A DNA stretch of 64,000 bases from a virus (IMGVR_UViG_3300026432_000013:1-64000); one strand, 5' to 3'. Counted from the stretch's first letter, positions 3,765 to 50,281 are shown. The notes: generated by a model from the sequence alone, not told the origin. Numbers and translations are program-made.

Positions 3765-4148
3765 TCATTTGGGTCTGATTGTTAGTACTACGTTCTCTAA
3801 AGCTCTAAAGTGGTCGCTACTGCCACCTTCCACACAGGTGTCTAAGCAACAATCCCCCTCTAGAACGTGCTTGCCATGAGCACTAACCAGCTTAAAGCTG
3901 ACTGTCTCAGCTTGCATAAAGCAGTCCATTACTGGAGTAGGGACGACCATTCTCTTAATCTTCAGGTTGCAAGTACCTCTGTATAGGGACGTTATCTGTG
4001 TCTCTATCTGGTGAGGAACTGCCACACCTGCTATCCATAGGTGAGTCTCTGGTGTTATCTCCGTGTCCACTCTGAATTCTGTCATGAATGATAAGTCTAC
4101 TTCTTGATTAGCCATTATATATTCATCTCCAAATAAGTTTTTTGCCAA
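3765..4148 (-). CDS. Hypothetical protein, tandem paralog array member
   Basis: HLWIAGVAVPH motif. Confidence 0.7.
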   Translation of the reverse strand: MAKNLFGDEYIMANQEVDLSFMTEFRVDTEITPETHLWIAGVAVPHQIETQITSLYRGTCNLKIKRMVVPTPVMDCFMQAETVSFKLVSAHGKHVLEGDCCLDTCVEGGSSDHFRALENVVLTIRPK

Positions 4149-4480
4149 GGTCTTAGATAAGGCACAATACGGAATCGTGCTTGTCGTAGATGAACCTTAT
4201 CACCATCACGTTCTACAGAGGTCGCAGCACAGTACTCCGTAAAGCCTTGGTGTAGGGTGTATGGAGTCATACCCACACCATGTGTATGGTGTATAAGGGC
4301 AAAGTGTAATTTGTCCTTTAGCTTATCATAGATATCAGCAGGTAGGGTAATGTAGTGAGTGAAGATATCCCAACTATCCCCATTGACTCTTTCCATGTAG
4401 AAAGGCTTGCCCAGTACTAAATCCTTCTTTTGTGCATGTGGTATATCTACTCCATCAATTGTTAGTGTGGTTATTTCCAT
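4115..4480 (-). CDS. Hypothetical protein, tandem paralog array member
   Basis: TLTIDGVDIPH motif. Confidence 0.8.
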   Translation of the reverse strand: MEITTLTIDGVDIPHAQKKDLVLGKPFYMERVNGDSWDIFTHYITLPADIYDKLKDKLHFALIHHTHGVGMTPYTLHQGFTEYCAATSVERDGDKVHLRQARFRIVPYLRPWQKTYLEMNI

Positions 4481-10079: not shown

Positions 10080-10625
10080 TTAGTCTCCATCTTCCTCATC
10101 ATCTTCTTCAGTATGCCCTAGCCAGAACATGCCTAGCTCCATGTCATCATCATACTCTACATCTAAATCCCCAAAGCCTGGTACAGAGTAAATGCCTGTT
10201 GGCTCAAGCCCTACCATCTCTAAGGTCTCTGGGTTGAACTTAACCATATCAGGGTCTACACCCTCTTTCACCTGATAGTCACGTACAGCCAACAACAATT
10301 GCTCGTTCATCTGTTTAATAGCTAGGTCTGGGTCTGTCTTATTGAGGTGATTACGAACAGCCTTATCATTAGCTTCCTTAGTACTCTTACCAAGGAAGTC
10401 ATCCATATACATTACCTGTACGTCTGGGTTATTCTTCAACAAGCCTGTTAGGAAGTCTCCAGTTGGAGTACCATCTCCACCACTAGCTTCAAACAATGTA
10501 CAAAGTTCTGGGTCATCGTAGTCCACTGGGATATTCTTAGCCTTCATCTCCTCGAATACATCAATGAACTTACACACCTTTTCATGTATGCAATCCTTAC
10601 AACTCTCTAACGTATAGCCTGCCAT
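10080..10625 (-). CDS. Hypothetical protein with Cys-rich N-terminus
   Basis: CKDCIHEKVC..C; acidic; SD AGGAG. Confidence 0.8.
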   Translation of the reverse strand: MAGYTLESCKDCIHEKVCKFIDVFEEMKAKNIPVDYDDPELCTLFEASGGDGTPTGDFLTGLLKNNPDVQVMYMDDFLGKSTKEANDKAVRNHLNKTDPDLAIKQMNEQLLLAVRDYQVKEGVDPDMVKFNPETLEMVGLEPTGIYSVPGFGDLDVEYDDDMELGMFWLGHTEEDDEEDGD

Positions 10626-12020: not shown

Positions 12021-12213
12021 GTGCGAAAGCCTACACTACGTACGATGAAAACGAGACCATAGATGAAACAGAGAGAGAAAACATACAGTACCAAAATGTG
12101 TACAGTTGATATTTGTAGGAGTTGAAGGCACAAAAAGAAAAAGAGGAAGGAAGATGAACATAGGTAAAAGATGAACCTTATAGAGAATTAGCAGTTATTA
12201 TATCTATTTAGTA

Positions 12214-12273
12214 CGAAAGGTTGGTGGTGGGGTAATTGGTGGTGAAGAGAGTATCTGATATACGAACGTCGAT
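12214..12273 (+). repeat. ~100-bp polar repeat, 5' half copy
   Basis: CGAAAGGTTGGTGGTGGGGTAATTGGTGGTGAAGAG...CGAAC. Confidence 0.75.
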
Positions 12274-12285
12274 TACTATCTAAGA

Positions 12286-12600
12286 CTGCCCCACGGGTTC
12301 TGGGGACGCTAGGCGTCCTAGTGCTGCCCCACGGACTGCTGGAATGCCTAGGCACTAGTGCTGCCTCTGCTGTATCAGGCAGTGCATAAGCCCTGTCCTG
12401 CGCCACGCAAATGCTTGATGTTAATAGCCCGTGTATATCGTATTATTCGTATATTAAGAGTATGCTGCCCCAAGGATATCGTGTTATTGTGATATAGTCC
12501 GTATATATCGTATTATTCGTATATTGAGAGTATGTGTTTTAGTATATTGTGTTTTGTGTATATATTAAGTGTGTAATATGCATATATCGTATTATTAGTA
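12286..12600 (+). repeat. Short direct-repeat complex
   Basis: CTGCCCCA x3 (12286, 12324, 12465), CTAGTGCTGCC x2, TATATCGTATTATT x3 plus variants (12434, 12475, 12504, 12543, 12583). Confidence 0.8.
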
Positions 12601-12666
12601 TACTAAAAGGGAAATATATAAGAAAGAGAGAATATTAAAACATTATTATATATTTATATTAAAGAT

Positions 12667-12756
12667 AAGGGTTGTGGTGGGGGAACTGGTGGTGAAGCGA
12701 TACCTCGCTCTTCTTTATATGAAGCAAGATTCTAGCTAACCCTCATAGAAACGTAC
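12667..12756 (+). repeat. ~100-bp polar repeat copy
   Basis: GGGTTGTGGTGGGGGAACTGGTGGTGAAG...GATTCTAGCTAACCCTCATAGAAA. Confidence 0.75.
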
Positions 12757-12789
12757 AGGGCTAGGTTATAACCCCACTCTAGGTAGGGA

Positions 12790-12825
12790 AACGTCCTTGA
12801 CTTTTACCCCAGTTCGTGGTAAACT
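12790..12825 (+). promoter_or_regulatory. SigA-type early promoter, AACGTCC class
   Basis: AACGTCC-TTGACT-N17(CGTG)-TAAACT. Confidence 0.85.
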
Positions 12826-12921
12826 TAGTTCAAGAGGAAGAGGGCACCACACCAGAGCAACACACGGACGGTACCCACGACCTACACAAAAAACTCAAGA
12901 GCGAAAAGGAGACTGATTAAG

Positions 12922-13326
12922 ATGGCTAAAAAACAACAAAAGGTAGACGCAGTGAAACACGTAGAGGAAAACGGCTTCCCAGAGGTAGGGCACTTCACAG
13001 AGAAGAAAGACCTACAGAAGTTCTACAAACAACTTGATGATGTAGTACTAGGGGAGTGGATTGCTATCGAAGGACTAGAGTTCAAACCTTGTGAGGACAG
13101 TGAGGCTATCAACCGCATGCGGATGTGTATGGCTATCCTTTACCTACACTTCCCTAAACAACCTTCTGCTAAGAAGAAAGCTAAGTACGCAGACTACACT
13201 ATGGAACAGCTTATGAAGATGTGCCTAGACAACGACGTAGCAGTAGAGTACACTGAGAGTGAACAAATCATGCGTATGAGAACTATCATGGCGCTACGTG
13301 CAGCAGGTCACATCGAGAAAGCTTAG
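12922..13326 (+). CDS. Tandem helix-extended-helix-like nucleic acid-binding protein, paralog family
   Basis: Two copies of an RMRxxMA-ending helical unit; KKKAKY linker; four other members in window. Confidence 0.8.
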   Translation: MAKKQQKVDAVKHVEENGFPEVGHFTEKKDLQKFYKQLDDVVLGEWIAIEGLEFKPCEDSEAINRMRMCMAILYLHFPKQPSAKKKAKYADYTMEQLMKMCLDNDVAVEYTESEQIMRMRTIMALRAAGHIEKA

Positions 13327-13395
13327 GGTTGCTAGGCTACCCCCTACGGGGGGTATCCCATGGAGCTAGTAAGCTACCTAGACTAAAGGAGTGGT
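13327..13395 (+). ncRNA. Structured intercistronic RNA element, copy A
   Basis: CTAG, UACG hairpin, TGGA hairpin with bulged A, CTAG, SD; covaries across copies. Confidence 0.75.
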
Positions 13396-13399
13396 TAGT

Positions 13400-13570
13400 G
13401 TGAACAACTTTTGGAAAGCTGTAAAGTCCCTAGAGGGTAAGACTGTGAGTAAGGTGTTAGAGGACGAGGTGAGTGGGGGTATCTGTATCAAGTGTACAGA
13501 CGGCACTAGTGTGTCAGTATCTGTGGATGCAGAGGAGCTAGACCTACAAGCAGTAGTGAACGAGGACTGA
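13400..13570 (+). CDS. 56-aa hypothetical protein (GTG start, not in ORF track)
   Basis: SD AAAGGAGTGG; VNNFWKAVKSLEGKTV... Confidence 0.7.
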   Translation: MNNFWKAVKSLEGKTVSKVLEDEVSGGICIKCTDGTSVSVSVDAEELDLQAVVNED

Positions 13571-13574
13571 GTGT

Positions 13575-13641
13575 CTGCTAGTGCACACCCTACGGGGTGT
13601 GTATCCTGGAGCTACTTAGCTACCTAGACAAAAGGAGTGGT
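13575..13641 (+). ncRNA. Structured intercistronic RNA element, copy B
   Basis: Same architecture as copy A. Confidence 0.75.
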
Positions 13642-13966
13642 AAGTGTGGGTAAAACTAAAACGTACGTACCTGAGTGGGTTATTCTGGAGGAGAACTCAC
13701 CTAGTGAGATGCACTATTTCCGTATGGTAGGCAGTGATGCACGTGAGTACGAGGGCACTGAGAGTATCTGGGTGGTTATCCTAGACCAAGTGCAGGAGGG
13801 AGAGTTCTGTGCCTCTATCGTGGCAGTGAACGACTCGTTAGTGGGCAGTGTAGTACCCCTGATGAGTACTGGAGTAGTGAGTGAGCAGAGTGCTAGGAAC
13901 AACCTAGAGTACTTGATGCGGTACGCTCGTAAGGGTATCGTGAGTGTAGGAGGTGGTCTACTATGA
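13637..13966 (+). CDS. Hypothetical protein
   Basis: SD AAAGGAGTGG; true start likely GTG at 13646. Confidence 0.75.
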   Translation: MVSVGKTKTYVPEWVILEENSPSEMHYFRMVGSDAREYEGTESIWVVILDQVQEGEFCASIVAVNDSLVGSVVPLMSTGVVSEQSARNNLEYLMRYARKGIVSVGGGLL

Positions 13967-14118
13967 AGACCGCAAGAACGATTAAGCGTGTGCTAGTGGT
14001 AACGGGAGCGTGTACGCTCCTTTACCTAGCATGTAACCTAGTGTATACTGCATGCACATGGACGTATCCAGGAGTAGACAAGCAGTTAGAAGCATATCAA
14101 GACACCTACAGTAAGTAG
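13963..14118 (+). CDS. 51-aa membrane-anchored peptide (not in ORF track)
   Basis: ATGA overlap; SD AGGAGG; TM segment; followed by a terminator. Confidence 0.65.
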   Translation: MKTARTIKRVLVVTGACTLLYLACNLVYTACTWTYPGVDKQLEAYQDTYSK

Positions 14119-14130
14119 GTGTCTATTTTT
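14101..14130 (+). terminator. Intrinsic terminator
   Basis: GACACCTAC/GTAGGTGTC hairpin plus T-tract. Confidence 0.75.
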
Positions 14131-14357
14131 GTGCGTTTGTGGGTGTAGGGCATCTTTTAGCCCGTTTTGGGGCTTTTGTGAGTGCAAAGGCTTTCGGGTT
14201 CAAACCTGCTTCAGAGAGAAATTTGGGTAGAAAACTAGTAGCTCAAAAATCCTGTTTGGTGTGTTGTTCGGTTGTGAATTTCGTTTCAAAATCAGTCAGA
14301 ACCATTTGTATATGAAAGAGAGAGAAGAGAGAAATTTGAGTATAAAAGATATATGAG

Positions 14358-14460
14358 CGAAGGGTTGTTGTTGGGTATATTGGTGGGGAGAAAGTAATTG
14401 ATAAGCGAACTCCGATTGCTTTATTTGAAAGGATTTTCTAGGTAACCCCCATAGAAAGCC
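14358..14460 (+). repeat. ~100-bp polar repeat copy
   Basis: CGAAGGGTTGTTGTTGGG...CGAAC..GATTGCTTTA...GATTTTCTAGGTAACCCCCATAGAAA. Confidence 0.8.
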
Positions 14461-14497
14461 CAACAGGGCTAAGGATACCGTCCATCCTATACCCGTG

Positions 14498-14533
14498 AAC
14501 GTCCTTGAGTATTCCGCCCACCCGTGATATAAT
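14498..14533 (+). promoter_or_regulatory. SigA-type early promoter, AACGTCC class
   Basis: AACGTCC-TTGAGT-N17(CGTG)-TATAAT. Confidence 0.85.
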
Positions 14534-14601
14534 TTATTCAAGGGGGGGCGGGGTTACCGCCCACTACCAAAATCGCCCACGAGGGCTAGGAGGAATATGA
14601 T

Positions 14602-15009
14602 ATGAGTAAAAAAGTGAATATCAACGGTAAAGTAGACGCTATGGAATGGATTACTACGAATAATGGGTATCCTGAGGTAGGTATCTTCGAGGATAAGAAA
14701 TGGCTACAAAAATTCTATAAGCAACTTCCTGTAGAGGTATTAGAGGATTGGTGTAGCGTAGAAGGATTGGAGTATAAGCCTAATGATAATGAACAGATTC
14801 ATAGAATGAGAGTATGTATGGCTATCCTATACTTCCACTATCCTAAGGAGCCATCTACTAAGAAGAAAGCTAAATATGCAGACTATACTATGGAGGCACT
14901 TATGACACTATGCCTAGATAATGATATAGCTGTAGAATATACAGATAGTGAGCAGATTATGAGAATGCGTACTATTATGGCACTACGTGCAGCTGGTAAG
15001 ATTCAGTAA
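14602..15009 (+). CDS. Tandem helix-extended-helix-like protein, paralog family
   Basis: Close paralog of 12922..13326 (e.g. KKKAKYADYTME...SEQIMRMRTIMALRAAG). Confidence 0.85.
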   Translation: MSKKVNINGKVDAMEWITTNNGYPEVGIFEDKKWLQKFYKQLPVEVLEDWCSVEGLEYKPNDNEQIHRMRVCMAILYFHYPKEPSTKKKAKYADYTMEALMTLCLDNDIAVEYTDSEQIMRMRTIMALRAAGKIQ

Positions 15010-15078
15010 GTTGCTAGTACTCCCTCTACGGAGGGGGTATCATGGAACCTATTGGTTACCTAGTATAGAAGGAGTGGT
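15010..15078 (+). ncRNA. Structured intercistronic RNA element, copy C
   Basis: Compensatory AACC/GGTT in hairpin 2. Confidence 0.75.
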
Positions 15079-15082
15079 AAGT

Positions 15083-15331
15083 ATGTGTGAAGTATTTGTA
15101 CCTATTAGTGAGTCCGATAGAGAGTGGCTACGTGAGTATCTGCGTGAGGTGTGTGTGATACATGATACCGTTACTGAGTACCGTGTATTATATACTCCAG
15201 GTGTAGGCACTGAGATAGAGTTGTATGGGTGTGTAGATGCAGAATCCTTCTACGTGAGTGATATAGACGGTGTAGAGTATTGGAGTAGATATCTGCGTGA
15301 GAAGGGCTTCCCTAGATATATGTATGAGTAA
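15083..15331 (+). CDS. Hypothetical protein
   Basis: Start reassigned to MCEVF after SD AAGGAGTGG. Confidence 0.75.
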   Translation: MCEVFVPISESDREWLREYLREVCVIHDTVTEYRVLYTPGVGTEIELYGCVDAESFYVSDIDGVEYWSRYLREKGFPRYMYE

Positions 15332-15337
15332 GTGTGT

Positions 15338-15369
15338 AACCCTAGTACCGTGTGTACTAGGGTTTTTCT
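15338..15369 (+). terminator. Intrinsic terminator
   Basis: AACCCTAGTAC/GTACTAGGGTT hairpin plus T-tract. Confidence 0.75.
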
Positions 15370-15495
15370 ATGCCCTTTTCTGCTTCTATGTGAGTTGTAT
15401 ATCAACTCTGTAAGTCGATTTCTCTCAAAGGTGAAAGGGTTCAAAGATTGAAGCAGGAGAAATTCGAGTAAGTGAGTGTTAGAACTTTCAATAGG

Positions 15496-15599
15496 CGAAA
15501 GGTTGGTGGAGGGGATGAATGGTGGGAAGAGTTTCTGATGAGCGAACCGAATTGCTTTAATAGGAAGTGAGTTTGTAGGTACTCCCCATAGAAACGAGC
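15496..15599 (+). repeat. ~100-bp polar repeat copy
   Basis: CGAAAGGTTGGTGGAGGGG...CGAAC..ATTGCTTTAA...GGTACTCCCCATAGAAA. Confidence 0.8.
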
Positions 15600-15643
15600 A
15601 TAAGAACACCCTACATACGTTTGTGTATGTAGGGTGTATATAG

Positions 15644-15865
15644 TCATAAGTACTTATCATCCTCTGTATACCAGCCAGTATCAAAGTGGTAGCCTACCCG
15701 TTTGGGTATGGTGTGGTTAGCTATCTCCTCTAGAGTGAGTGCTACTATAGCATCTATATCCTCCTGGCTACAGTCTGATGCGTATATATTCTCGTTCTCT
15801 ATAGCCTTGTTTATCTCTGCTACTACCTGCTCCTGTATAAGCTTTCTTAGGGTATCCTGCTTCAT
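15644..15865 (-). CDS. Hypothetical protein
   Basis: Probable paralog of 15867..16097. Confidence 0.7.
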   Translation of the reverse strand: MKQDTLRKLIQEQVVAEINKAIENENIYASDCSQEDIDAIVALTLEEIANHTIPKRVGYHFDTGWYTEDDKYL

Positions 15866-15866
15866 A

Positions 15867-16097
15867 CTAGCAGTCCTCCTCTATATCGAATCTATTATTT
15901 ACATTAGGTGTAATGATAGCTTCATGCAAGTCTCCTAGGATATTATCTGCTATAGCATTAATGTCACTATAGGTATAACCTACAGTGTCGTATCCTATCT
16001 TTTCCATACTAGCATTATGCGCTTCTATATTTAGCTTAATCTCATTACATAGCCATGTTCTTACTACTGTTGGTATATCTTTATATGGTTGACTCAT
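15867..16097 (-). CDS. Hypothetical protein
   Basis: SD AAAAGGAG; EI..IE..N...DI.AI...L pattern. Confidence 0.75.
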   Translation of the reverse strand: MSQPYKDIPTVVRTWLCNEIKLNIEAHNASMEKIGYDTVGYTYSDINAIADNILGDLHEAIITPNVNNRFDIEEDC

Positions 16098-16102
16098 ATT
16101 AA

Positions 16103-16169
16103 CTCTCTCCTTTTATCTGTGAGTATAGGTATTCCAGAGATAGCCCTGCGTACAAGGCTACCTAGCAAT
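16103..16169 (-). ncRNA. Structured intercistronic RNA element, degenerate copy F
   Basis: TTGCTAG, TACG hairpin, TGGA, SD; hairpin 2 eroded. Confidence 0.55.
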
Positions 16170-16171
16170 CT

Positions 16172-16468
16172 CTATACGTGAGTAGTGCATCCTAGGAACA
16201 CTTTAGTTGGTAAGTACAGGATAGTATTAGGGTCGTCTACATATACAAAGCGTACCCAGACACTGTCCCTAGGGTTAGTATACTCTACTTGAGCGAATAG
16301 TGCTTGGAAGTCCTCTGGTACCTCTCTGTACCTAGAGATGCCTAGCACCTTAACCGCTCCCTGCTCCATATCTTGTAGCCCATTAGCGAATGTAGGGTAT
16401 AAATTCCACCAGCTATCTGGCTTTACCTCTATAGTGATGTGTGCATCTGCATTACCTAATTCGTGCAT
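16172..16468 (-). CDS. Hypothetical protein
   Basis: WVxFxYxD...YxP..F shared with 17641..17958. Confidence 0.75.
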   Translation of the reverse strand: MHELGNADAHITIEVKPDSWWNLYPTFANGLQDMEQGAVKVLGISRYREVPEDFQALFAQVEYTNPRDSVWVRFVYVDDPNTILYLPTKVFLGCTTHV

Positions 16469-16508
16469 ATTAACCTCTCCCTTATATGTAATACTAGGGG
16501 CTATGCCC

Positions 16509-16883
16509 CTAGCTGATATAGTATACCTGAACCTCTACTCCGTTGGCTAGGGTACGCTGGTAGCAGCCTATGTGGACTACTACACAGTCCTCTAGCCCAC
16601 AGTGGCACTCTATCTGCTTCTCTAGGTGCTCCATACTAACGCACCCTGTCATCCAGTTCTCCTCTACCTCACTATGGTCTAGAGTATCTGCATAGTGGTG
16701 CAGGTAGTGTGCCGTGGTTAGGATAGTATCCTCATCTCTATTTTTACTATCCAGAATATGGTACTCTCTGTCATACTGGATAGTAGTTACCTCTGCTTCT
16801 AGCCCATCGTTGAGCCTAATAGCCTTTACTGCCTCATCTACGTGTCCTACAGGAATATCGTGGCTACCGTATACAATAATCAT
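16509..16883 (-). CDS. Hypothetical protein
   Basis: Operon-packed ORF. Confidence 0.75.
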   Translation of the reverse strand: MIIVYGSHDIPVGHVDEAVKAIRLNDGLEAEVTTIQYDREYHILDSKNRDEDTILTTAHYLHHYADTLDHSEVEENWMTGCVSMEHLEKQIECHCGLEDCVVVHIGCYQRTLANGVEVQVYYIS

Positions 16884-17068
16884 TGCATATCCTCCCCTAT
16901 CATAATGTCTTCCTTACAGCTAGGGCAGATATGGATAGTACCAGGCTCCTGTAGAGCGATACTAGATATCATATCCATTGTATACGTTTCCCCTAGGAAC
17001 GCCTCAGCAGTTGCCTTATCCCAATCCTCTACACTACTCTCTACTCCACAGTGTACACATTCTACCAT
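16880..17068 (-). CDS. Small zinc-ribbon protein
   Basis: CVHC...CPSC. Confidence 0.75.
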   Translation of the reverse strand: MVECVHCGVESSVEDWDKATAEAFLGETYTMDMISSIALQEPGTIHICPSCKEDIMIGEDMQ

Positions 17069-17118
17069 TACTATCTCCTCCTAGTCTCTAGTAGGAGCAC
17101 CCCTGCTCCCTTGAAGAA

Positions 17119-17154
17119 ATTATACCACGGAGCAGGGGAAAGTTCAAGGACGTT
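17119..17154 (-). promoter_or_regulatory. SigA-type early promoter, AACGTCC class
   Basis: AACGTCC-TTGAAC-N17(CGTG)-TATAAT. Confidence 0.85.
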
Positions 17155-17167
17155 CCCCTACCCTAGA

Positions 17168-17566
17168 CTATCTAGGATTTCTCACATAAGGGTTATCTAT
17201 AAACAATAGGTAGATATCTTTATCATTCTGCTTACGTATGATAGCTCTATTATCATCTCCCATACGTTCTACCTTATTAACTTCCCATACACTATACTCC
17301 TCATACAGACGCTTACCAGAGATATCCTTACCCTGCCATACATCCTCTTGTAGCATAGCCCCTGTAGGTATCACTACGTTTATAAGGTCTTCTACCCAGT
17401 CGTCTGGATATGTCTCAGGTAGAGCCAATAGGTTAAACTGCTCCCCATCCTCTACAAACTTAGTTAGACCCATACCCATAGCACGCTTTACAAACTCTGC
17501 TACCTCTGTAGCTGTAGCACGCTCGCTATATAAGTACGCTACTGGTGTCATTTTCTTACTTAACAT
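17168..17566 (-). CDS. Hypothetical protein
   Basis: SD AAAGGAGTGG; start reassigned to MLSKK. Confidence 0.75.
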   Translation of the reverse strand: MLSKKMTPVAYLYSERATATEVAEFVKRAMGMGLTKFVEDGEQFNLLALPETYPDDWVEDLINVVIPTGAMLQEDVWQGKDISGKRLYEEYSVWEVNKVERMGDDNRAIIRKQNDKDIYLLFIDNPYVRNPR

Positions 17567-17570
17567 ATAT

Positions 17571-17640
17571 ACCACTCCTTTTTATCTAGGTAGCTATTTA
17601 GCTCCATAAGGAAGGCGATAGTATCGCCTGCCCTAGCAAC
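17571..17640 (-). ncRNA. Structured intercistronic RNA element, copy D
   Basis: Same architecture; different loop in hairpin 1. Confidence 0.7.
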
Positions 17641-17958
17641 CTATAGCTGACTCATATGGTCTGCAAACTCGTCTACAGGGAAGTACTCATAGTGGTCATC
17701 GTCCTCACGCTGCTTAGGGTCTGTATACTGGAACGCTACCCACTGCCAGTTTTGTACATCACTAGGGTCGTCTTGGAACTGCTCCCATGCATACAGGTCG
17801 ACATACTTAGGTAGCTGAGATGTAGGTACAATCTTCATAATCTCTACCTCACCACTATCTAGCCCTAGGTATCCGTAGCTAGTATTGATACGGCACACCT
17901 TACCTATCTTAATAGTTCTTTCTACATTCACCGTAATAGATGTTAATCTAGTACCCAT
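17641..17958 (-). CDS. Hypothetical protein
   Basis: Start reassigned to MGTRL after SD AAAGGAG. Confidence 0.75.
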   Translation of the reverse strand: MGTRLTSITVNVERTIKIGKVCRINTSYGYLGLDSGEVEIMKIVPTSQLPKYVDLYAWEQFQDDPSDVQNWQWVAFQYTDPKQREDDDHYEYFPVDEFADHMSQL

Positions 17959-18018
17959 GTCTATCTCTCCTTTTATCCTCGATATTCGTTTGGTGGGTTG
18001 CCCCGCCTCCGTACTCAA

Positions 18019-18054
18019 ATTATCCCACGGACGGAGGAAAATCTCAAGGACGTT
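18019..18054 (-). promoter_or_regulatory. SigA-type early promoter, AACGTCC class
   Basis: AACGTCC-TTGAGA-N17(CGTG)-GATAAT. Confidence 0.8.
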
Positions 18055-18101
18055 GGCTACTGGTATCCTAGTTACGGGGTGTCCCTATAGCGTGGGAGTA
18101 T

Positions 18102-18140
18102 TTTATTTGAAGTGATTTTCTACCTACCCTCCATAGAGAT
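18102..18140 (+). repeat. Polar repeat, 3' half copy
   Basis: TTTATTTGAAGTGATTTTCTACCTACCCTCCATAGA. Confidence 0.6.
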
Positions 18141-18176
18141 GTCTAGGCATAAAAATAGCCCCTATTAGGGGCGGTA

Positions 18177-18518
18177 TTAGTCTAGGTTATAGGTACCAGG
18201 TCTACAGAAGTAGTACCATGCTTCATAGTAATAGGATAGGTTATCATGGGTACGATTCATTAAGGCTAGCCCTGTAAAGTGATGCTGATAGAAGTCTAGC
18301 CACTCACTATGGTAGTGCTCTAGGCAGTCTAGTAATATCTTAGCGCTATCTTTAGTTAGCATATCCTGTACATTAAACTCATCTAGTATATTAGTACACT
18401 CAGCCATAGTAATAGAGTGACTACAGTGCTCACGCTTAATATCATTGATACGCTCTTGTATAAATCCAATAGTCCATTCCATTACTTCTTCTCTAGTATA
18501 TAATTCTTTCTTAGCCAT
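18177..18518 (-). CDS. Hypothetical protein
   Basis: SD AAGGGAG; terminator downstream at 18151-18172. Confidence 0.75.
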   Translation of the reverse strand: MAKKELYTREEVMEWTIGFIQERINDIKREHCSHSITMAECTNILDEFNVQDMLTKDSAKILLDCLEHYHSEWLDFYQHHFTGLALMNRTHDNLSYYYEAWYYFCRPGTYNLD

Positions 18519-18538
18519 TTATATCCGCTCCCTTAGTA

Positions 18539-18742
18539 TTAGAATTCACTACTATGCTTATATCCATTACCTCTTTGTATTACCTTGTATGCGCTCTTAT
18601 CATATATGTTATCCCCTGTATAGGTAGCTAATGCGTAATCAGTGAGTGCCATATTCTTTATAAACCGTCTCATAGCAGACATAGACTGGTATGTCTTATG
18701 ACCCTTTAACCCATCTTGTGAGTACTCTACGTTTAGTGGCAT
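18539..18742 (-). CDS. Hypothetical protein
   Basis: Operon-packed ORF. Confidence 0.7.
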   Translation of the reverse strand: MPLNVEYSQDGLKGHKTYQSMSAMRRFIKNMALTDYALATYTGDNIYDKSAYKVIQRGNGYKHSSEF

Positions 18743-19063
18743 CTATGCCACCACCAGTACGTGTAGGAACTCTACATCAATATATTGTTCCTTAGACACT
18801 GTTACCGTAATACCATGAGTACACACTATGCAGGATGTAGTAGTAAGTGGCAGGTCATCTAGAGCAGGTATCTCATTCATATGATCAGCATGTGCCCACA
18901 TAGTAGTGGCATGCTCATTAGATATTGAAGCAGGTGCTAGGTACATATCACCCTCTATATTGTGCCACTCTGCTTCCTGTATACCTAGCCTTAGGGCTAG
19001 TTCGTCCATTACCTCAGTAGGTATAAGCGTGTTATTAACAAGTACCTTAGTCATATTATGCAC
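18743..19063 (-). CDS. Hypothetical protein
   Basis: Operon-packed ORF. Confidence 0.7.
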   Translation of the reverse strand: MHNMTKVLVNNTLIPTEVMDELALRLGIQEAEWHNIEGDMYLAPASISNEHATTMWAHADHMNEIPALDDLPLTTTSCIVCTHGITVTVSKEQYIDVEFLHVLVVA

Positions 19064-19331
19064 CCCACTTTATGATATGTTTGATAGTACCTGTAGTCTG
19101 GTTATCTATTTCCGCTGCATATACTCCAGTACCAAAGTCTAAGCCTTGGTCTACCTGCTCCTTAACAGTGCTCCAGCCTGTAGCAGTCTTAGTAACCTTA
19201 TTCCACACACCATCGAAAGTATTAGGGCACTTAGGGTCATCGCTATCTACCAACCTACCCTCTTTATCTACAATCACACTATCTCCATCAGTGAATAGTA
19301 TACAGTAATCTTGGCTATACATATTAACCAC
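19056..19331 (-). CDS. Hypothetical protein
   Basis: SD AAAGGAGTGG; true start likely near 19322. Confidence 0.75.
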   Translation of the reverse strand: MVNMYSQDYCILFTDGDSVIVDKEGRLVDSDDPKCPNTFDGVWNKVTKTATGWSTVKEQVDQGLDFGTGVYAAEIDNQTTGTIKHIIKWGA

Positions 19332-19396
19332 TCCTTTTATCTAGGTAACATATAATGTTCCAGTGCTACAGCCCCCGTAGGGGCTATGCTAGCAAC
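19327..19396 (-). ncRNA. Structured intercistronic RNA element, copy E
   Basis: Compensatory AACAT/ATGTT in hairpin 2; cUACGg loop. Confidence 0.75.
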
Positions 19397-19398
19397 AC

Positions 19399-20229
19399 CT
19401 ATGCTAAGATACCAGCTTGCTTTAGAGCCATGATAGTGTACATGCGTAGGATGTTCTCATTACCCTTACCATCTCTTACCTCGATATCGTTATCGATAGC
19501 CATCTCTAGTAGCTCTTCTGTAGTAAGGTGACCATACTTAGCTTTCTTCTTACTACCAGACTTCTTAGGGAAGTGGTGGTTACTGATAGCCATGCACGCT
19601 CTCATACGATTGATACCAGGGTTATCGTTAGTCTTCCACTCTAAGCCTTCAATATCAGCCCACTCTGTAATCTGCTCCATAGATAGGCGCTTGTAGAACT
19701 TCTTAATATCCTCTACAGATTCAAAGTGTCCTACTTCAGGGTACTCAATCTCCTGACCTGCTAGGTCTTCCTTAACCTTAGGAGCTTTAGCCTTAGGCTC
19801 TGGCTGTTTTAGTTTCTTAGCCATAGCTCTCCAGTCAGCTACCTCTTCTTTAGGCTCTTCTTCTACAGGAGCAGGTACTTCCTCTTCAGTATGTACCTCT
19901 GGCTCAGTACCATCTCCTAAGTCTTCCTCTTCTAGTTCTGGCTCAATACCGTCACTACCATCGTTTACTCCTACCTCCTGCTCTTCCTCTACCTGCTCTA
20001 GCTTACCGCTCTCTGGAGCGTCTCCTACCATAACGATTTCTAGCTTACCTTCCTCTACTGCTGCTTCTACTAGAGTGTCGTTACCTGCTTCTTCTACTAC
20101 ATCCTCGATAACCTCTACGCCTTCGTACTCACCAGCTAAAATACCTTTCTTAGTAACCTTTACTCCTAAGATTGCTCCTACTTCCTTAACTGTTGTTACT
20201 GTTTCCTCACCGTTTACTAGATATGCCAT
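19399..20229 (-). CDS. Long member of the tandem helix-extended-helix-like family (N-domain, acidic linker, two repeats)
   Basis: Start reassigned to MAYLV after SD AAAGGAG; C-terminus matches 12922/14602; N-terminus resembles 62531..63223. Confidence 0.85.
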   Translation of the reverse strand: MAYLVNGEETVTTVKEVGAILGVKVTKKGILAGEYEGVEVIEDVVEEAGNDTLVEAAVEEGKLEIVMVGDAPESGKLEQVEEEQEVGVNDGSDGIEPELEEEDLGDGTEPEVHTEEEVPAPVEEEPKEEVADWRAMAKKLKQPEPKAKAPKVKEDLAGQEIEYPEVGHFESVEDIKKFYKRLSMEQITEWADIEGLEWKTNDNPGINRMRACMAISNHHFPKKSGSKKKAKYGHLTTEELLEMAIDNDIEVRDGKGNENILRMYTIMALKQAGILA

Positions 20230-20298
20230 AATTATCGTCTCCTTTATTCTCTGATAGTCGGAAGGTGCTCTGCTGTAGTGCCCCTCTCGCTTGAACAA

Positions 20299-20334
20299 AT
20301 TATGTCATGACTGTTCGAGGAAGTCAAGGACGTT
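20299..20334 (-). promoter_or_regulatory. SigA-type early promoter, AACGTCC class
   Basis: AACGTCC-TTGACT-N17(CATG)-CATAAT. Confidence 0.8.
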
Positions 20335-20470
20335 TTGTTACTCTAGCCTACTCTACTTGCTGACCCTATACGGATTTGGTGTGCTACCAATGTAACCTAC
20401 TTAGCCCCACCAAGAAAAAATAAAAAAGGAAGAGATGCGGTTTCGCTATCTCTTCCCTAGTTCTTTTCCC

Positions 20471-20510
20471 TTATTGGAATTGATTTTCTACCTAACCCCC
20501 ATAGAAACCC
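20471..20510 (+). repeat. Polar repeat, 3' half copy
   Basis: TTATTGGAATTGATTTTCTACCTAACCCCCATAGAAA. Confidence 0.65.
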
Positions 20511-20767
20511 TACGAATGTGGGTTATGCGGTGGGGCTACCATGTCTCTAATGTTAATATAGTGCTCTACCTCTGTAGCTGTAGTACCCTCTGCTGCATGG
20601 TTGTGCTGTACACATAGTGGGCAGGTAGGTAGCTCATCCTTATAGTGAGCTAGGAACGACCCATGCAGGTCACAGGGATGTAGCTTCATACCCTTTGGTA
20701 GATACCTTACTACACCTTCCATACCAATCTGGTTAATAGACTTTTGTATATTATTAATAGTACTCAT
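20510..20767 (-). CDS. Small Cys/His metal-binding protein
   Basis: CDLHG...CPLC; start reassigned to MSTIN after SD AGGAGG. Confidence 0.7.
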   Translation of the reverse strand: MSTINNIQKSINQIGMEGVVRYLPKGMKLHPCDLHGSFLAHYKDELPTCPLCVQHNHAAEGTTATEVEHYINIRDMVAPPHNPHS

Positions 20768-20836
20768 TGTTATCCCTCCTAATACAAATAAAAATAGAGT
20801 ATGGCTTGTCATTCTTGTACCATACTCTAAGCTATA

Positions 20837-33161: not shown

Positions 33162-33197
33162 ATTTTCTCACGACTGGAAACAGAAATCAAGGACGTT
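33162..33197 (-). promoter_or_regulatory. AACGTCC-class promoter upstream of the helicase
   Basis: AACGTCC-TTGATT-N17(CGTG)-GAAAAT. Confidence 0.7.
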
Positions 33198-34845: not shown

Positions 34846-35193
34846 CTAGAAATCGTTATAGATTTTATGTGGTATACCTGCCTGCCCCATCTTCATAAGC
34901 ATGTCATTAGTACCTTTACTGTTCAGCTTACTTCTGAACCCTAGACCATATTCAGGCTTACCCTCATGCAACATCTGGCTATTACGGTATAAGCCCTCAC
35001 GCTTATCGCCTTTCCACTCAGCCTTATATACTTCTACTTTAAACCCTAAGTATCTGGCTACTATGTCTACTATTTTGTCTAGTCCTTTAGCACCACCATG
35101 TATGATAACAGAGTCTACTGGTAATTCCAGTAGAGCATCTATTACCATGTCAACGTTCTTGAAGTCTCTACTCCCCGTGCATAGAACTCTCAT
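34846..35193 (-). CDS. SLOG-superfamily (DUF2493/YspA-like) protein
   Basis: VLCTGSRDF, IIHGGAKGLD, RNSQML, KGT..M. Confidence 0.85.
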   Translation of the reverse strand: MRVLCTGSRDFKNVDMVIDALLELPVDSVIIHGGAKGLDKIVDIVARYLGFKVEVYKAEWKGDKREGLYRNSQMLHEGKPEYGLGFRSKLNSKGTNDMLMKMGQAGIPHKIYNDF

Positions 35194-49972: not shown

Positions 49973-50281
49973 CTACTCTGCTTTAGGAGCAAAGTCTTCT
50001 ACTTTTAAGCCTTTTACAGCTTTCTTTAAATCTTCACCAGCTTTGATACGAACGCCTACAGTAGCAGCGATTTCCATTGGCTCTTTCTTAATAGGGTCAA
50101 AACCTTTACGTGGTGCACGGTATGCAGGCTCTACTCCCCAGAAACCAGTTAATTGTAACTTTTCACCTTTTTGTAGAGTTTCTACAGTGATTTCTTTAAG
50201 CGCAGTAAACACTTTGTTTACATCCACTTGAGTTAATCCAGTACGTACAGAGATAGCTTTTACAGTTTCTTGTTTATTCAT
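49973..50281 (-). CDS. HU-family DNA-binding protein, SPO1 TF1-like
   Basis: LTGF, RKGFDP (Phe where HU has Arg), C-terminal extension GLKVEDFA as in TF1 GLKYEDFAK. Confidence 0.9.
   Translation of the reverse strand: MNKQETVKAISVRTGLTQVDVNKVFTALKEITVETLQKGEKLQLTGFWGVEPAYRAPRKGFDPIKKEPMEIAATVGVRIKAGEDLKKAVKGLKVEDFAPKAE

Follow-up and report, generated by a model that had tools for sequence, protein, structure and literature searches.

What is the recurrent arrangement of genes and RNA structures found between 12 and 21 kb of a 64,000-nt stretch of viral DNA (IMGVR_UViG_3300026432_000013:1-64000; hereafter, the window)? Three related genes in this region, two encoding gp51-like proteins (paralogs A and B) and one encoding an orthologue of gp44, are each preceded by a promoter carrying the motif AACGTCC, and are directly followed by a structured RNA element (RS) that leads into an unrelated "cargo" gene. 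A sequence-only reading had taken this recurrence for a new type of cassette, in which each leader protein would act on the RNA behind its own gene. We consider it very probable, from homology throughout the region, that 12-21 kb has instead the layout of an SPO1-type host-takeover module, in which host-type promoters, regulators of the gp44/gp51 family and hairpins of the RNase III type occur together, with no private protein-RNA switch.

The RNA element and the RNase III sites of SP82 and SPO1

We made a covariance model, R1, from four copies of the RNA element in the window. The 76-kb viral record from which the window derives contains exactly six copies (RS1 to RS6; Table 1), two of them recovered as additional copies by the R1 search, and all are located between 13.3 and 19.4 kb. 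Three lie behind the paralogs, where the element spans the stop codon to the next start codon, and three lie behind non-paralogs; all six are intercistronic within early operons.

In each of the six copies, both the minimum free energy (MFE) and the centroid fold comprise one irregular hairpin of about 55-60 nt (z-scores -2.3 to -4.5). Its architecture is that of an outer stem bearing the stop codon, a short GGUU/AGCY helix, the conserved loop strands GUUGCUAG and AUGGAGC, and an inner stem of 10-12 bp, with a conserved Shine-Dalgarno region directly beyond. Cognate halves of the inner stem pair at -11.9 kcal/mol, as against -6.1 kcal/mol for non-cognate halves, and the corresponding values for the outer stem are -6.7 and -4.5 kcal/mol (permutation p < 1e-4). 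The loop motifs found behind the paralogs are the same in RS5, which follows a non-paralog, whilst in RS6 the 5' one is retained and the 3' one has diverged. In longer folds the Shine-Dalgarno sequence is mostly unpaired, and sequestration of this sequence by the element, which we had considered, is inconsistent from copy to copy. Earlier models of the RNA, comprising either two separate hairpins or an RNAalifold structure that pairs with the Shine-Dalgarno region, were dropped, as the MFE folds and the SPO1 annotation both favor a single long irregular hairpin.

The R1 search also retrieved orthologous copies in Bacillus phage CP-51 and six sites in SPO1. Among the sites annotated as 'RNAse III site' in the SPO1 record AF031901, RS-A scored 39.9, RS-D 34.5, RS-C 28.4 and RS-B 22.7 bits, and the annotated spans of these four, when folded, adopt the architecture seen in the window. 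The RNase III sites of SP82 and SPO1 resemble the window copies in position, being located between cistrons of sigma-A early operons in the terminal-repeat host-takeover region, and in build, since GUUGCUAG and AUGGAGC flank a GC-rich inner hairpin, an outer stem closes the irregular structure of 50-60 nt, and a strong Shine-Dalgarno sequence comes next. They differ in that the host of the window phage belongs to the B. cereus group, and in that the window copies are more uniform, often have a UACG tetraloop, and carry a longer conserved ribosome-site tail. In addition, three of the six window copies follow genes of the gp44/gp51 family, whereas none does so in SPO1, and cleavage of the window copies is a prediction. 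The shared motifs and fold place the RNA element in the Bacillus RNase III processing-site family of SP82 and SPO1. An Rfam scan of 11.5-21.5 kb, with E up to 1, returned no family; R1 provides a covariance model for the SP82/SPO1 site family, which is absent from Rfam.

Two further RS-type hairpins in AF031901 have no annotation as RNase III sites. One, at 10504-10594(-), falls on terminator TL2.7, which separates genes 58 and 57, and the other, at 4107-4190(+), is located in the leader of gene 44, downstream of PE5.

Phage identity and plan of the early region

The interval 12.6-15.4 kb is 82-86% identical to Bacillus phages CP-51, JL and Shanette (blastn), and in JL and Shanette the match falls within the annotated terminal repeat. 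The gene for paralog A is ~67% identical to gene 51 of SPO1 and its relatives (blastn). As judged from sequence, the window comes from a CP-51-like Bacillus phage of the Spounavirinae. CP-51 is an SPO1-like phage with hydroxymethyluracil DNA and fixed genome ends (PMC4113786).

Synteny comparison revealed a plan like that of SPO1 genes 37-60, with two opposite-strand blocks of short genes, and 12-21 kb corresponds to a version of the host-takeover module. Like the SPO1 module (genes 37-60; promoters PE1-PE12; genes 44, 50 and 51), the region is made up of short early operons in divergent blocks, with operon ends marked by terminators. Its promoters likewise have TTGAC, a -10 with a TG extension and, 5' of the -35, a conserved flank, and it encodes a gp44 orthologue and gp51 homologues. 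The window differs from SPO1 in having two gp51 copies rather than one and no gene 50, a promoter flank of AACGTCC in place of the A-rich AAAAAGT, gp44/gp51 genes that head polycistronic operons with cargo behind an RS element, and a polar upstream repeat that SPO1 lacks. The parts belong to known families and follow the known SPO1 plan, and what seemed to be a new "system" would be the SPO1 host-takeover plan in another phage clade. The earlier statement that no description of the arrangement exists does not hold, as the SPO1 module already has annotated early promoters, RNase III sites, and genes 44 and 51. In public records of the CP-51-type clade, the takeover-region genes are all "hypothetical" and the regulatory sites are unannotated.

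The threefold cassette itself stands in part. Its components are where they had been placed, and each paralog does have an AACGTCC promoter upstream (12790, 14498 and 20334(-)) and an RS element directly behind. The selection of units was partial, however, given that three of the six RS copies follow genes other than paralogs and two of the five AACGTCC promoters head non-paralog operons. Moreover, a tandem duplication (205 nt, 76% identity) links operon units A and B, which are therefore not independent. Duplication of operon units would explain the recurrence of promoter, paralog, hairpin and cargo, with the downstream genes subsequently exchanged by recombination at the repeated hairpin/ribosome-site joints.

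Host RNase III as the candidate processing enzyme

The SP82 sites are described as recognized RNase III targets (PMC4838370, citing Panganiban & Whiteley 1983 and Mitra & Bechhofer 1994), and for SP82 targets that have an internal loop a single cut by Bs-RNase III on the downstream side of the stem is reported (PMC1935012). By homology to these sites, RNase III processing would be the best-supported mechanism for the RS hairpins. We envisage a single cut, made by host RNase III on the hairpin's 3' side, which would leave the upstream cistron with a protective 3' hairpin and free the downstream cistron with a short leader and an accessible ribosome-binding site. The cistrons of one operon may thereby differ in stability and yield. 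Both cleavage in the CP-51-like phage and its effect on expression are what we infer from this homology. Processing had been listed among the possible functions of the RNA, and this option gains support, except that the putative enzyme is host RNase III and not the leader protein. By analogy, the early-transcript RNase III sites of T7 (R0.3 to R1.3) may be comparable, being intercistronic irregular hairpins with internal loops that are cut once and leave 3' hairpins on the upstream messages; they have no sequence relationship to the RS elements, and involve another enzyme and another host.

Several observations weigh against this account. R1 matched four of the six annotated SPO1 sites, and gave no match to RS-E and RS-F. 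RS-A to RS-F are themselves annotations of the record, and cleavage by RNase III of the B. cereus group is predicted from homology. The 1983 work of Panganiban and Whiteley is said to have mapped only three SP82 sites experimentally. Phages that infect different hosts have kept the RS loop strands, which could point to recognition by a reader other than RNase III. All three paralogs of the clade are among the six RS-followed genes of 18 (hypergeometric p = 0.025, a value that takes the genes to be independent although they are not), and a weak functional link, such as a need for uncoupling of the regulator mRNA from that of the cargo, may therefore exist. Finally, an account that combines RNase III sites and a takeover module leaves the polar repeat unexplained.

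The strand-polar repeat

Halves of the polar repeat were found by nhmmer only at 12.2-20.5 kb, all on the plus strand and in inter-operon spacers. The proposal that the repeat precedes the promoter of each cassette is borne out at 12790 and 14498. Since all copies are on the plus strand, the repeat is inverted relative to the promoter of the third, minus-strand cassette, from which it is also ~130 nt distant, and no promoter comes directly after the copy at 12212-12278 or the one at 15495-15601.

The repeat core (~TTTATnTGAArGnATTTyCTAnnTAnnCCCC) is kept in distant Spounavirinae (L016, L018 and L013). In distant relatives every copy of its 3' core shares the strand of the gp51 genes, including copies within blocks of minus-strand genes; L016 has eight copies, L018 has five, and an Exiguobacterium phage has six that are weak. 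Most of the cores in relatives lie 20-71 nt before a strong plus-strand promoter, which in L016 and L018 has the CGTCC flank as well. Searches of SPO1 and SP82G for the core found none.

Three explanations for the repeat were discarded. As a structured RNA it has an RNAalifold energy of only -0.5 kcal/mol over 12 copies, it cannot be coding because its copies differ by frame-shifting indels, and it is not a decayed reverse RS element, as R1 does not match it. Our guess is that the repeat acts at the level of DNA, as the site of a protein that bends or represses. This could be extended to a reading in which the recurring unit is a self-regulated, duplicating, DNA-based early-operon module. The polar motif, 31-59 nt upstream of CGTCC promoters, would then be an operator for early shutoff by gp51/gp44 or a TF1-like protein, and cargo would be exchanged at RS joints behind a constant regulator. 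We regard this as unlikely.

Exchange of cargo genes at the hairpin joints

Collinear blastn blocks between the window and six relatives define 19 clusters of breakpoints. Five of these fall no more than 15 nt from an RS boundary, where ~4% would be expected (p about 0.001); the other 14 are elsewhere, for example at promoter leaders, terminators and start codons. Individual exchanges are readily recognized. The window order RS1-X-RS2-Y corresponds to RS-Y in Shanette-type phages, and in CP-51 the stretch between the conserved gp51-A and gene Z carries two unrelated genes, gp186 and gp185, both of them preceded by an RS element. In CP-51 the cargo gene at 19056-19322 is deleted exactly from start codon to start codon, and an extra RS element with gp179 is present after 15333. 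The data support the view that cargo genes have probably been swapped at the joints formed by the RS hairpin and ribosome site, so that RS sites would double as joints for early-gene swapping. The suggested shuffling is thus upheld insofar as indel and replacement breakpoints coincide with these joints.

Such shuffling resembles that of the promoter-early stem-loop (PeSL) cassettes of T4-type phages (PMC2839356). The likeness lies in short regulatory repeats, set between small non-essential early genes, at which insertions, deletions and replacements distinguish close relatives. The parts differ, since the PeSL combines a promoter with a terminator stem-loop, whereas RS is a processing-type hairpin plus a ribosome-binding site, with no promoter and no U-tract.

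Could the RS unit be chiefly a portable recombination joint and strong translation-initiation module, with RNA processing incidental? The clustering of breakpoints at RS boundaries would fit, as would the indel between direct RS repeats, the replacement of cargo between conserved flanks, and the ~30 nt, nearly identical in four to five copies, that run through the Shine-Dalgarno sequence as far as the start codon. However, phage mosaics often break at gene boundaries anyway, and most of the clusters lie away from RS. In addition, the stems covary and the fold is kept in SPO1, in the CP-51 clade and in metagenomic lineages, which together show selection on RNA structure, and not on DNA identity alone. 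We therefore think it distinctly improbable that processing is incidental.

Less probable readings: termination and a cognate switch

Another way to grade expression within an operon would be for the RS hairpins to act mainly as partial terminators or attenuators. In the SPO1 record, the annotations of two terminators, TL3 and TL2.7, coincide or overlap with hairpins of the RS type, and the RS inner stems are GC-rich with stable tetraloops. Yet none of the six copies is followed by a U-tract, and a terminator scan skipped all six whilst finding ordinary terminators at the operon ends at 14100, 15338 and 18158. Intrinsic termination, moreover, needs neither the conserved outer stem nor the loop strands, and we rate this reading as very improbable.

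As for the cognate switch, the relatives are informative. In SPO1, gene 50 overlaps gene 51, which has a terminator at its end, whilst gene 44 runs into terminators and its RS-like hairpin lies before rather than after it, and the RS sites separate other genes; SP82G has the same arrangement at its gp51 and gp44 genes. In Exiguobacterium phage vB_EalM-132, two gp51-like genes and one gp44-like gene are each followed by ordinary terminators, and an R1 search of this genome gave no match. Metagenomic relatives have RS hairpins after some PF26856 (gp51-family) genes and after other genes, and in one case before a gp44-like gene. The adjacency of paralog and RS, absent in SPO1, SP82G and vB_EalM-132 and partial in the metagenomes, is not conserved, and the switch falls on a ground that the sequence-only reading had itself named as decisive. 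Within the window, the element occurs as often behind unrelated genes, with the same loop motifs behind 13400-13570 and 17641-17958 and a third, 3'-diverged copy behind 16172-16468, and no RNA feature specific to the paralogs was seen beyond the covarying stems. λ N/nut is alike only in concept, in that an early protein works on an RNA site carried by its own transcript; no boxA/boxB-like pairing was seen, although no search aimed at it was made, the RS RNA is not specific to paralog operons, and the linkage of protein and site is not kept in relatives.

Although all three paralogs of the CP-51-type clade are RS-followed, the single-stranded loop motifs might bind a protein, and the paralog domain resembles the nucleic-acid-binding SAP/HeH fold, SAP/LEM-type folds typically bind double-stranded DNA, and we consider it extremely improbable that each gp44/gp51 paralog binds the hairpin behind its own gene to control antitermination, translation or processing of the cargo.

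The gp51/gp44-family proteins

Paralogs A and B align with SPO1 gp51 (50-58% identity) and both match phrog_9647 (E 1e-72 and 5e-76). We found 268 homologues of the paralogs, and PF26856 (Phage_SPO1_gp51) is present on all 120 homologues listed. The long paralog aligns with gp44 along the N- and C-terminal parts, with an acidic linker in between, and matches phrog_12391, annotated 'transcriptional regulator', over its full length. Its N-terminus matches the structure of the N-terminal domain of SPO1 E3/gp44 (PDB 6L6V; E 4.5e-4), and the protein encoded at 19399-20229(-) has the three-part build of gp44, namely an Xis-like N-terminal domain, an acidic middle and a C-terminal region. SPO1 gp44, gp50 and gp51 are reported to be required for the early-to-middle switch and host shutoff, and gp44 to bind RNA polymerase, with inhibition through its acidic, DNA-mimicking region (PMC8208478, PMC13401047); the gp44/gp51-family proteins of SPO1 thus turn off both early and host transcription.

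The description of the paralogs as "tandem HeH-like" (the helix-extended-helix motif has some 35-45 residues) is reasonable but unproven. It is reasonable because the gp51 domain has an internal repeat (E 6e-7), a confident all-helical model with a predicted local distance difference test (pLDDT) score of 91, and recurrent, albeit weak, SAP/LEM matches. VIA-align matches to the model did not exceed a Z of 4.9, but repeatedly, at Z 3-4.4, covered SAP or LEM domains almost in full; they include the Ku70 SAP domain (Z 4.4, root-mean-square deviation [rmsd] 2.6, 50 residues aligned) and the emerin LEM domain (Z 4.2, rmsd 1.8, 41 aligned), together with PIAS1, SF3B2 and CDNF-C. Further leads in the same direction came from the Atlas (SAP, Rho_N and Ish1). 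A Foldseek search of the PDB with the model gave no match with E below 1, a profile search of the PDB with the gp51 family gave matches at chance level only, and a Pfam scan of 10 proteins, using a Pfam set that does not include the PF26856 model, gave no match.

The gp51 domain (14602-15009, and the C-terminal third of gp44 at 19399-19760(-)) is predicted to be a well-folded helical tandem repeat. The C-terminal region of SPO1 gp44 was unstructured by nuclear magnetic resonance (PMC8208478). A confident model is now at hand for this domain, which is shared with the C-terminal part of the RNA-polymerase inhibitor gp44. The metagenomic relatives L015, L016 and L018 have three to four PF26856 paralogs per takeover region, most of them the first gene of an operon, and multiplied gp51-led operons are therefore widespread, unlike in SPO1.

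Early promoters

Five AACGTCC promoters are present in the region, two of which (18054(-) and 17154(-)) head non-paralog operons. Their sequences, which before the paralogs are of the type AACGTCC-TTGA..TGnTATAAT, indicate strong, TG-extended promoters that would be read by host sigma-A RNA polymerase, with AACGTCC as a lineage-specific flank. Several have an inverted repeat located between the -35/-10 spacer and the transcript start (14505-14560, 17154-17095(-), 18054-18000(-) and 20334-20280(-)), and its arms vary by promoter (CCCCTGCTCC / GGAGCAGGGG at 17154; CCTCCGT / ACGGAGG at 18054). Four of the five have a TTCAAG box after the -10, and promoter 18054 has GAGTAC instead. Outside the takeover region there are two promoter-like sites of the AACGTCC / AACGTTC type, at 33162-33197(-) and 35152-35190(+).

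Table 1. Operons, genes and regulatory elements in the early region, in window coordinates.
Feature	Coordinates	Strand	Remarks
Operon A		+	promoter 12790, gp51-like A 12922-13326, RS1, gene X 13400-13570, RS2, gene Y 13646-13966, gene Z 13963-14118, terminator 14100-14124
Operon B		+	promoter 14498, gp51-like B 14602-15009, RS3, gene 15083-15331, terminator 15338-15364
gp44-led operon		-	promoter 20334, gp44-like 20229-19399, RS4, gene 19322-19056, three further genes, terminator 18172-18158
Non-paralog operon		-	promoter 18054, gene 17958-17641, RS5, gene 17566-17168
Non-paralog operon		-	promoter 17154, three genes (first 17068-16880), RS6 after 16468-16172, then two genes
gp51-like paralog A	12922-13326	+	134 aa; PF26856 / phrog_9647
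gp51-like paralog B	14602-15009	+	135 aa; 70% identical to paralog A; internal tandem repeat; AF2 model all-helical, pLDDT 91
gp44 orthologue	19399-20229	-	276 aa; PDB 6L6V-like N-terminal domain, acidic linker, C-terminal gp51-type domain
RS1	13320-13404	+	after paralog A; upstream stop codon within outer stem; conserved ribosome-binding region
RS2	13564-13650	+	after non-paralog gene X
RS3	15003-15087	+	after paralog B
RS4	19318-19405	-	after gp44 orthologue
RS5	17562-17647	-	after non-paralog 17641-17958, before gene 17168-17566
RS6	16093-16178	-	after non-paralog 16172-16468, before gene 15867-16097
Cargo gene X	13400-13570	+	56 aa, no family; absent from Shanette-type relatives
Cargo gene Y	13646-13966	+	phrog_32370; slot filled by unrelated genes in CP-51
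Gene Z, conserved last gene of operon A	13963-14118	+	96% identical to CP-51 gp184; terminator 14100-14124 overlaps gene end
Cargo gene of operon B	15083-15331	+	phrog_30634; terminator 15338-15364 follows
Cargo gene behind RS4	19056-19322	-	phrog_38070; absent from CP-51
Gene behind RS6	15867-16097	-	directly after RS6
Early sigma-A-type promoter	12790-12825	+	AACGTCC, TTGACT, 17 nt, TG-extended TAAACT
Early promoter	14498-14533	+	AACGTCC, TTGAGT, 17 nt, TG-extended TATAAT
Early promoter	20299-20334	-	AACGTCC, TTGACT, 17 nt, TG-extended CATAAT
Early AACGTCC promoter	18019-18054	-	heads non-paralog gene 17641-17958
Early AACGTCC promoter	17119-17154	-	heads non-paralog operon from 17068-16880 onward
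Polar repeat, 5' half only	12212-12278	+	no promoter directly behind
Polar repeat copy	12663-12759	+	ends 31 nt before AACGTCC of promoter 12790
Polar repeat, full copy	14356-14464	+	ends 34 nt before AACGTCC of promoter 14498
Polar repeat copy	15495-15601	+	where plus and minus operons converge; no promoter behind
Polar repeat, 3' half	18094-18147	+	40 nt upstream of promoter 18054, inverted relative to promoter
Polar repeat, 3' half	20464-20515	+	overlaps stop codon of gene 20510-20812(-); ~130 nt upstream of promoter 20334, inverted

Other features of the window

A tRNA scan of the window found none. Just past the first polar half-repeat, 12282-12400 is GC-rich with short direct repeats (e.g., CTGCCCCACGG and TAGTGCTGCC) and no convincing open reading frame. 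A gene for an HU/TF1-type DNA-binding protein is located at 50012-50281(-) (PF00216, E 5e-21), and SPO1 has one too. The gene-free divergence point of the early region, 12424-12613, contains three to four copies of an iteron-like, AT-rich direct repeat of ~40 nt with the core ATATATCGTATTATTCGTATATT.

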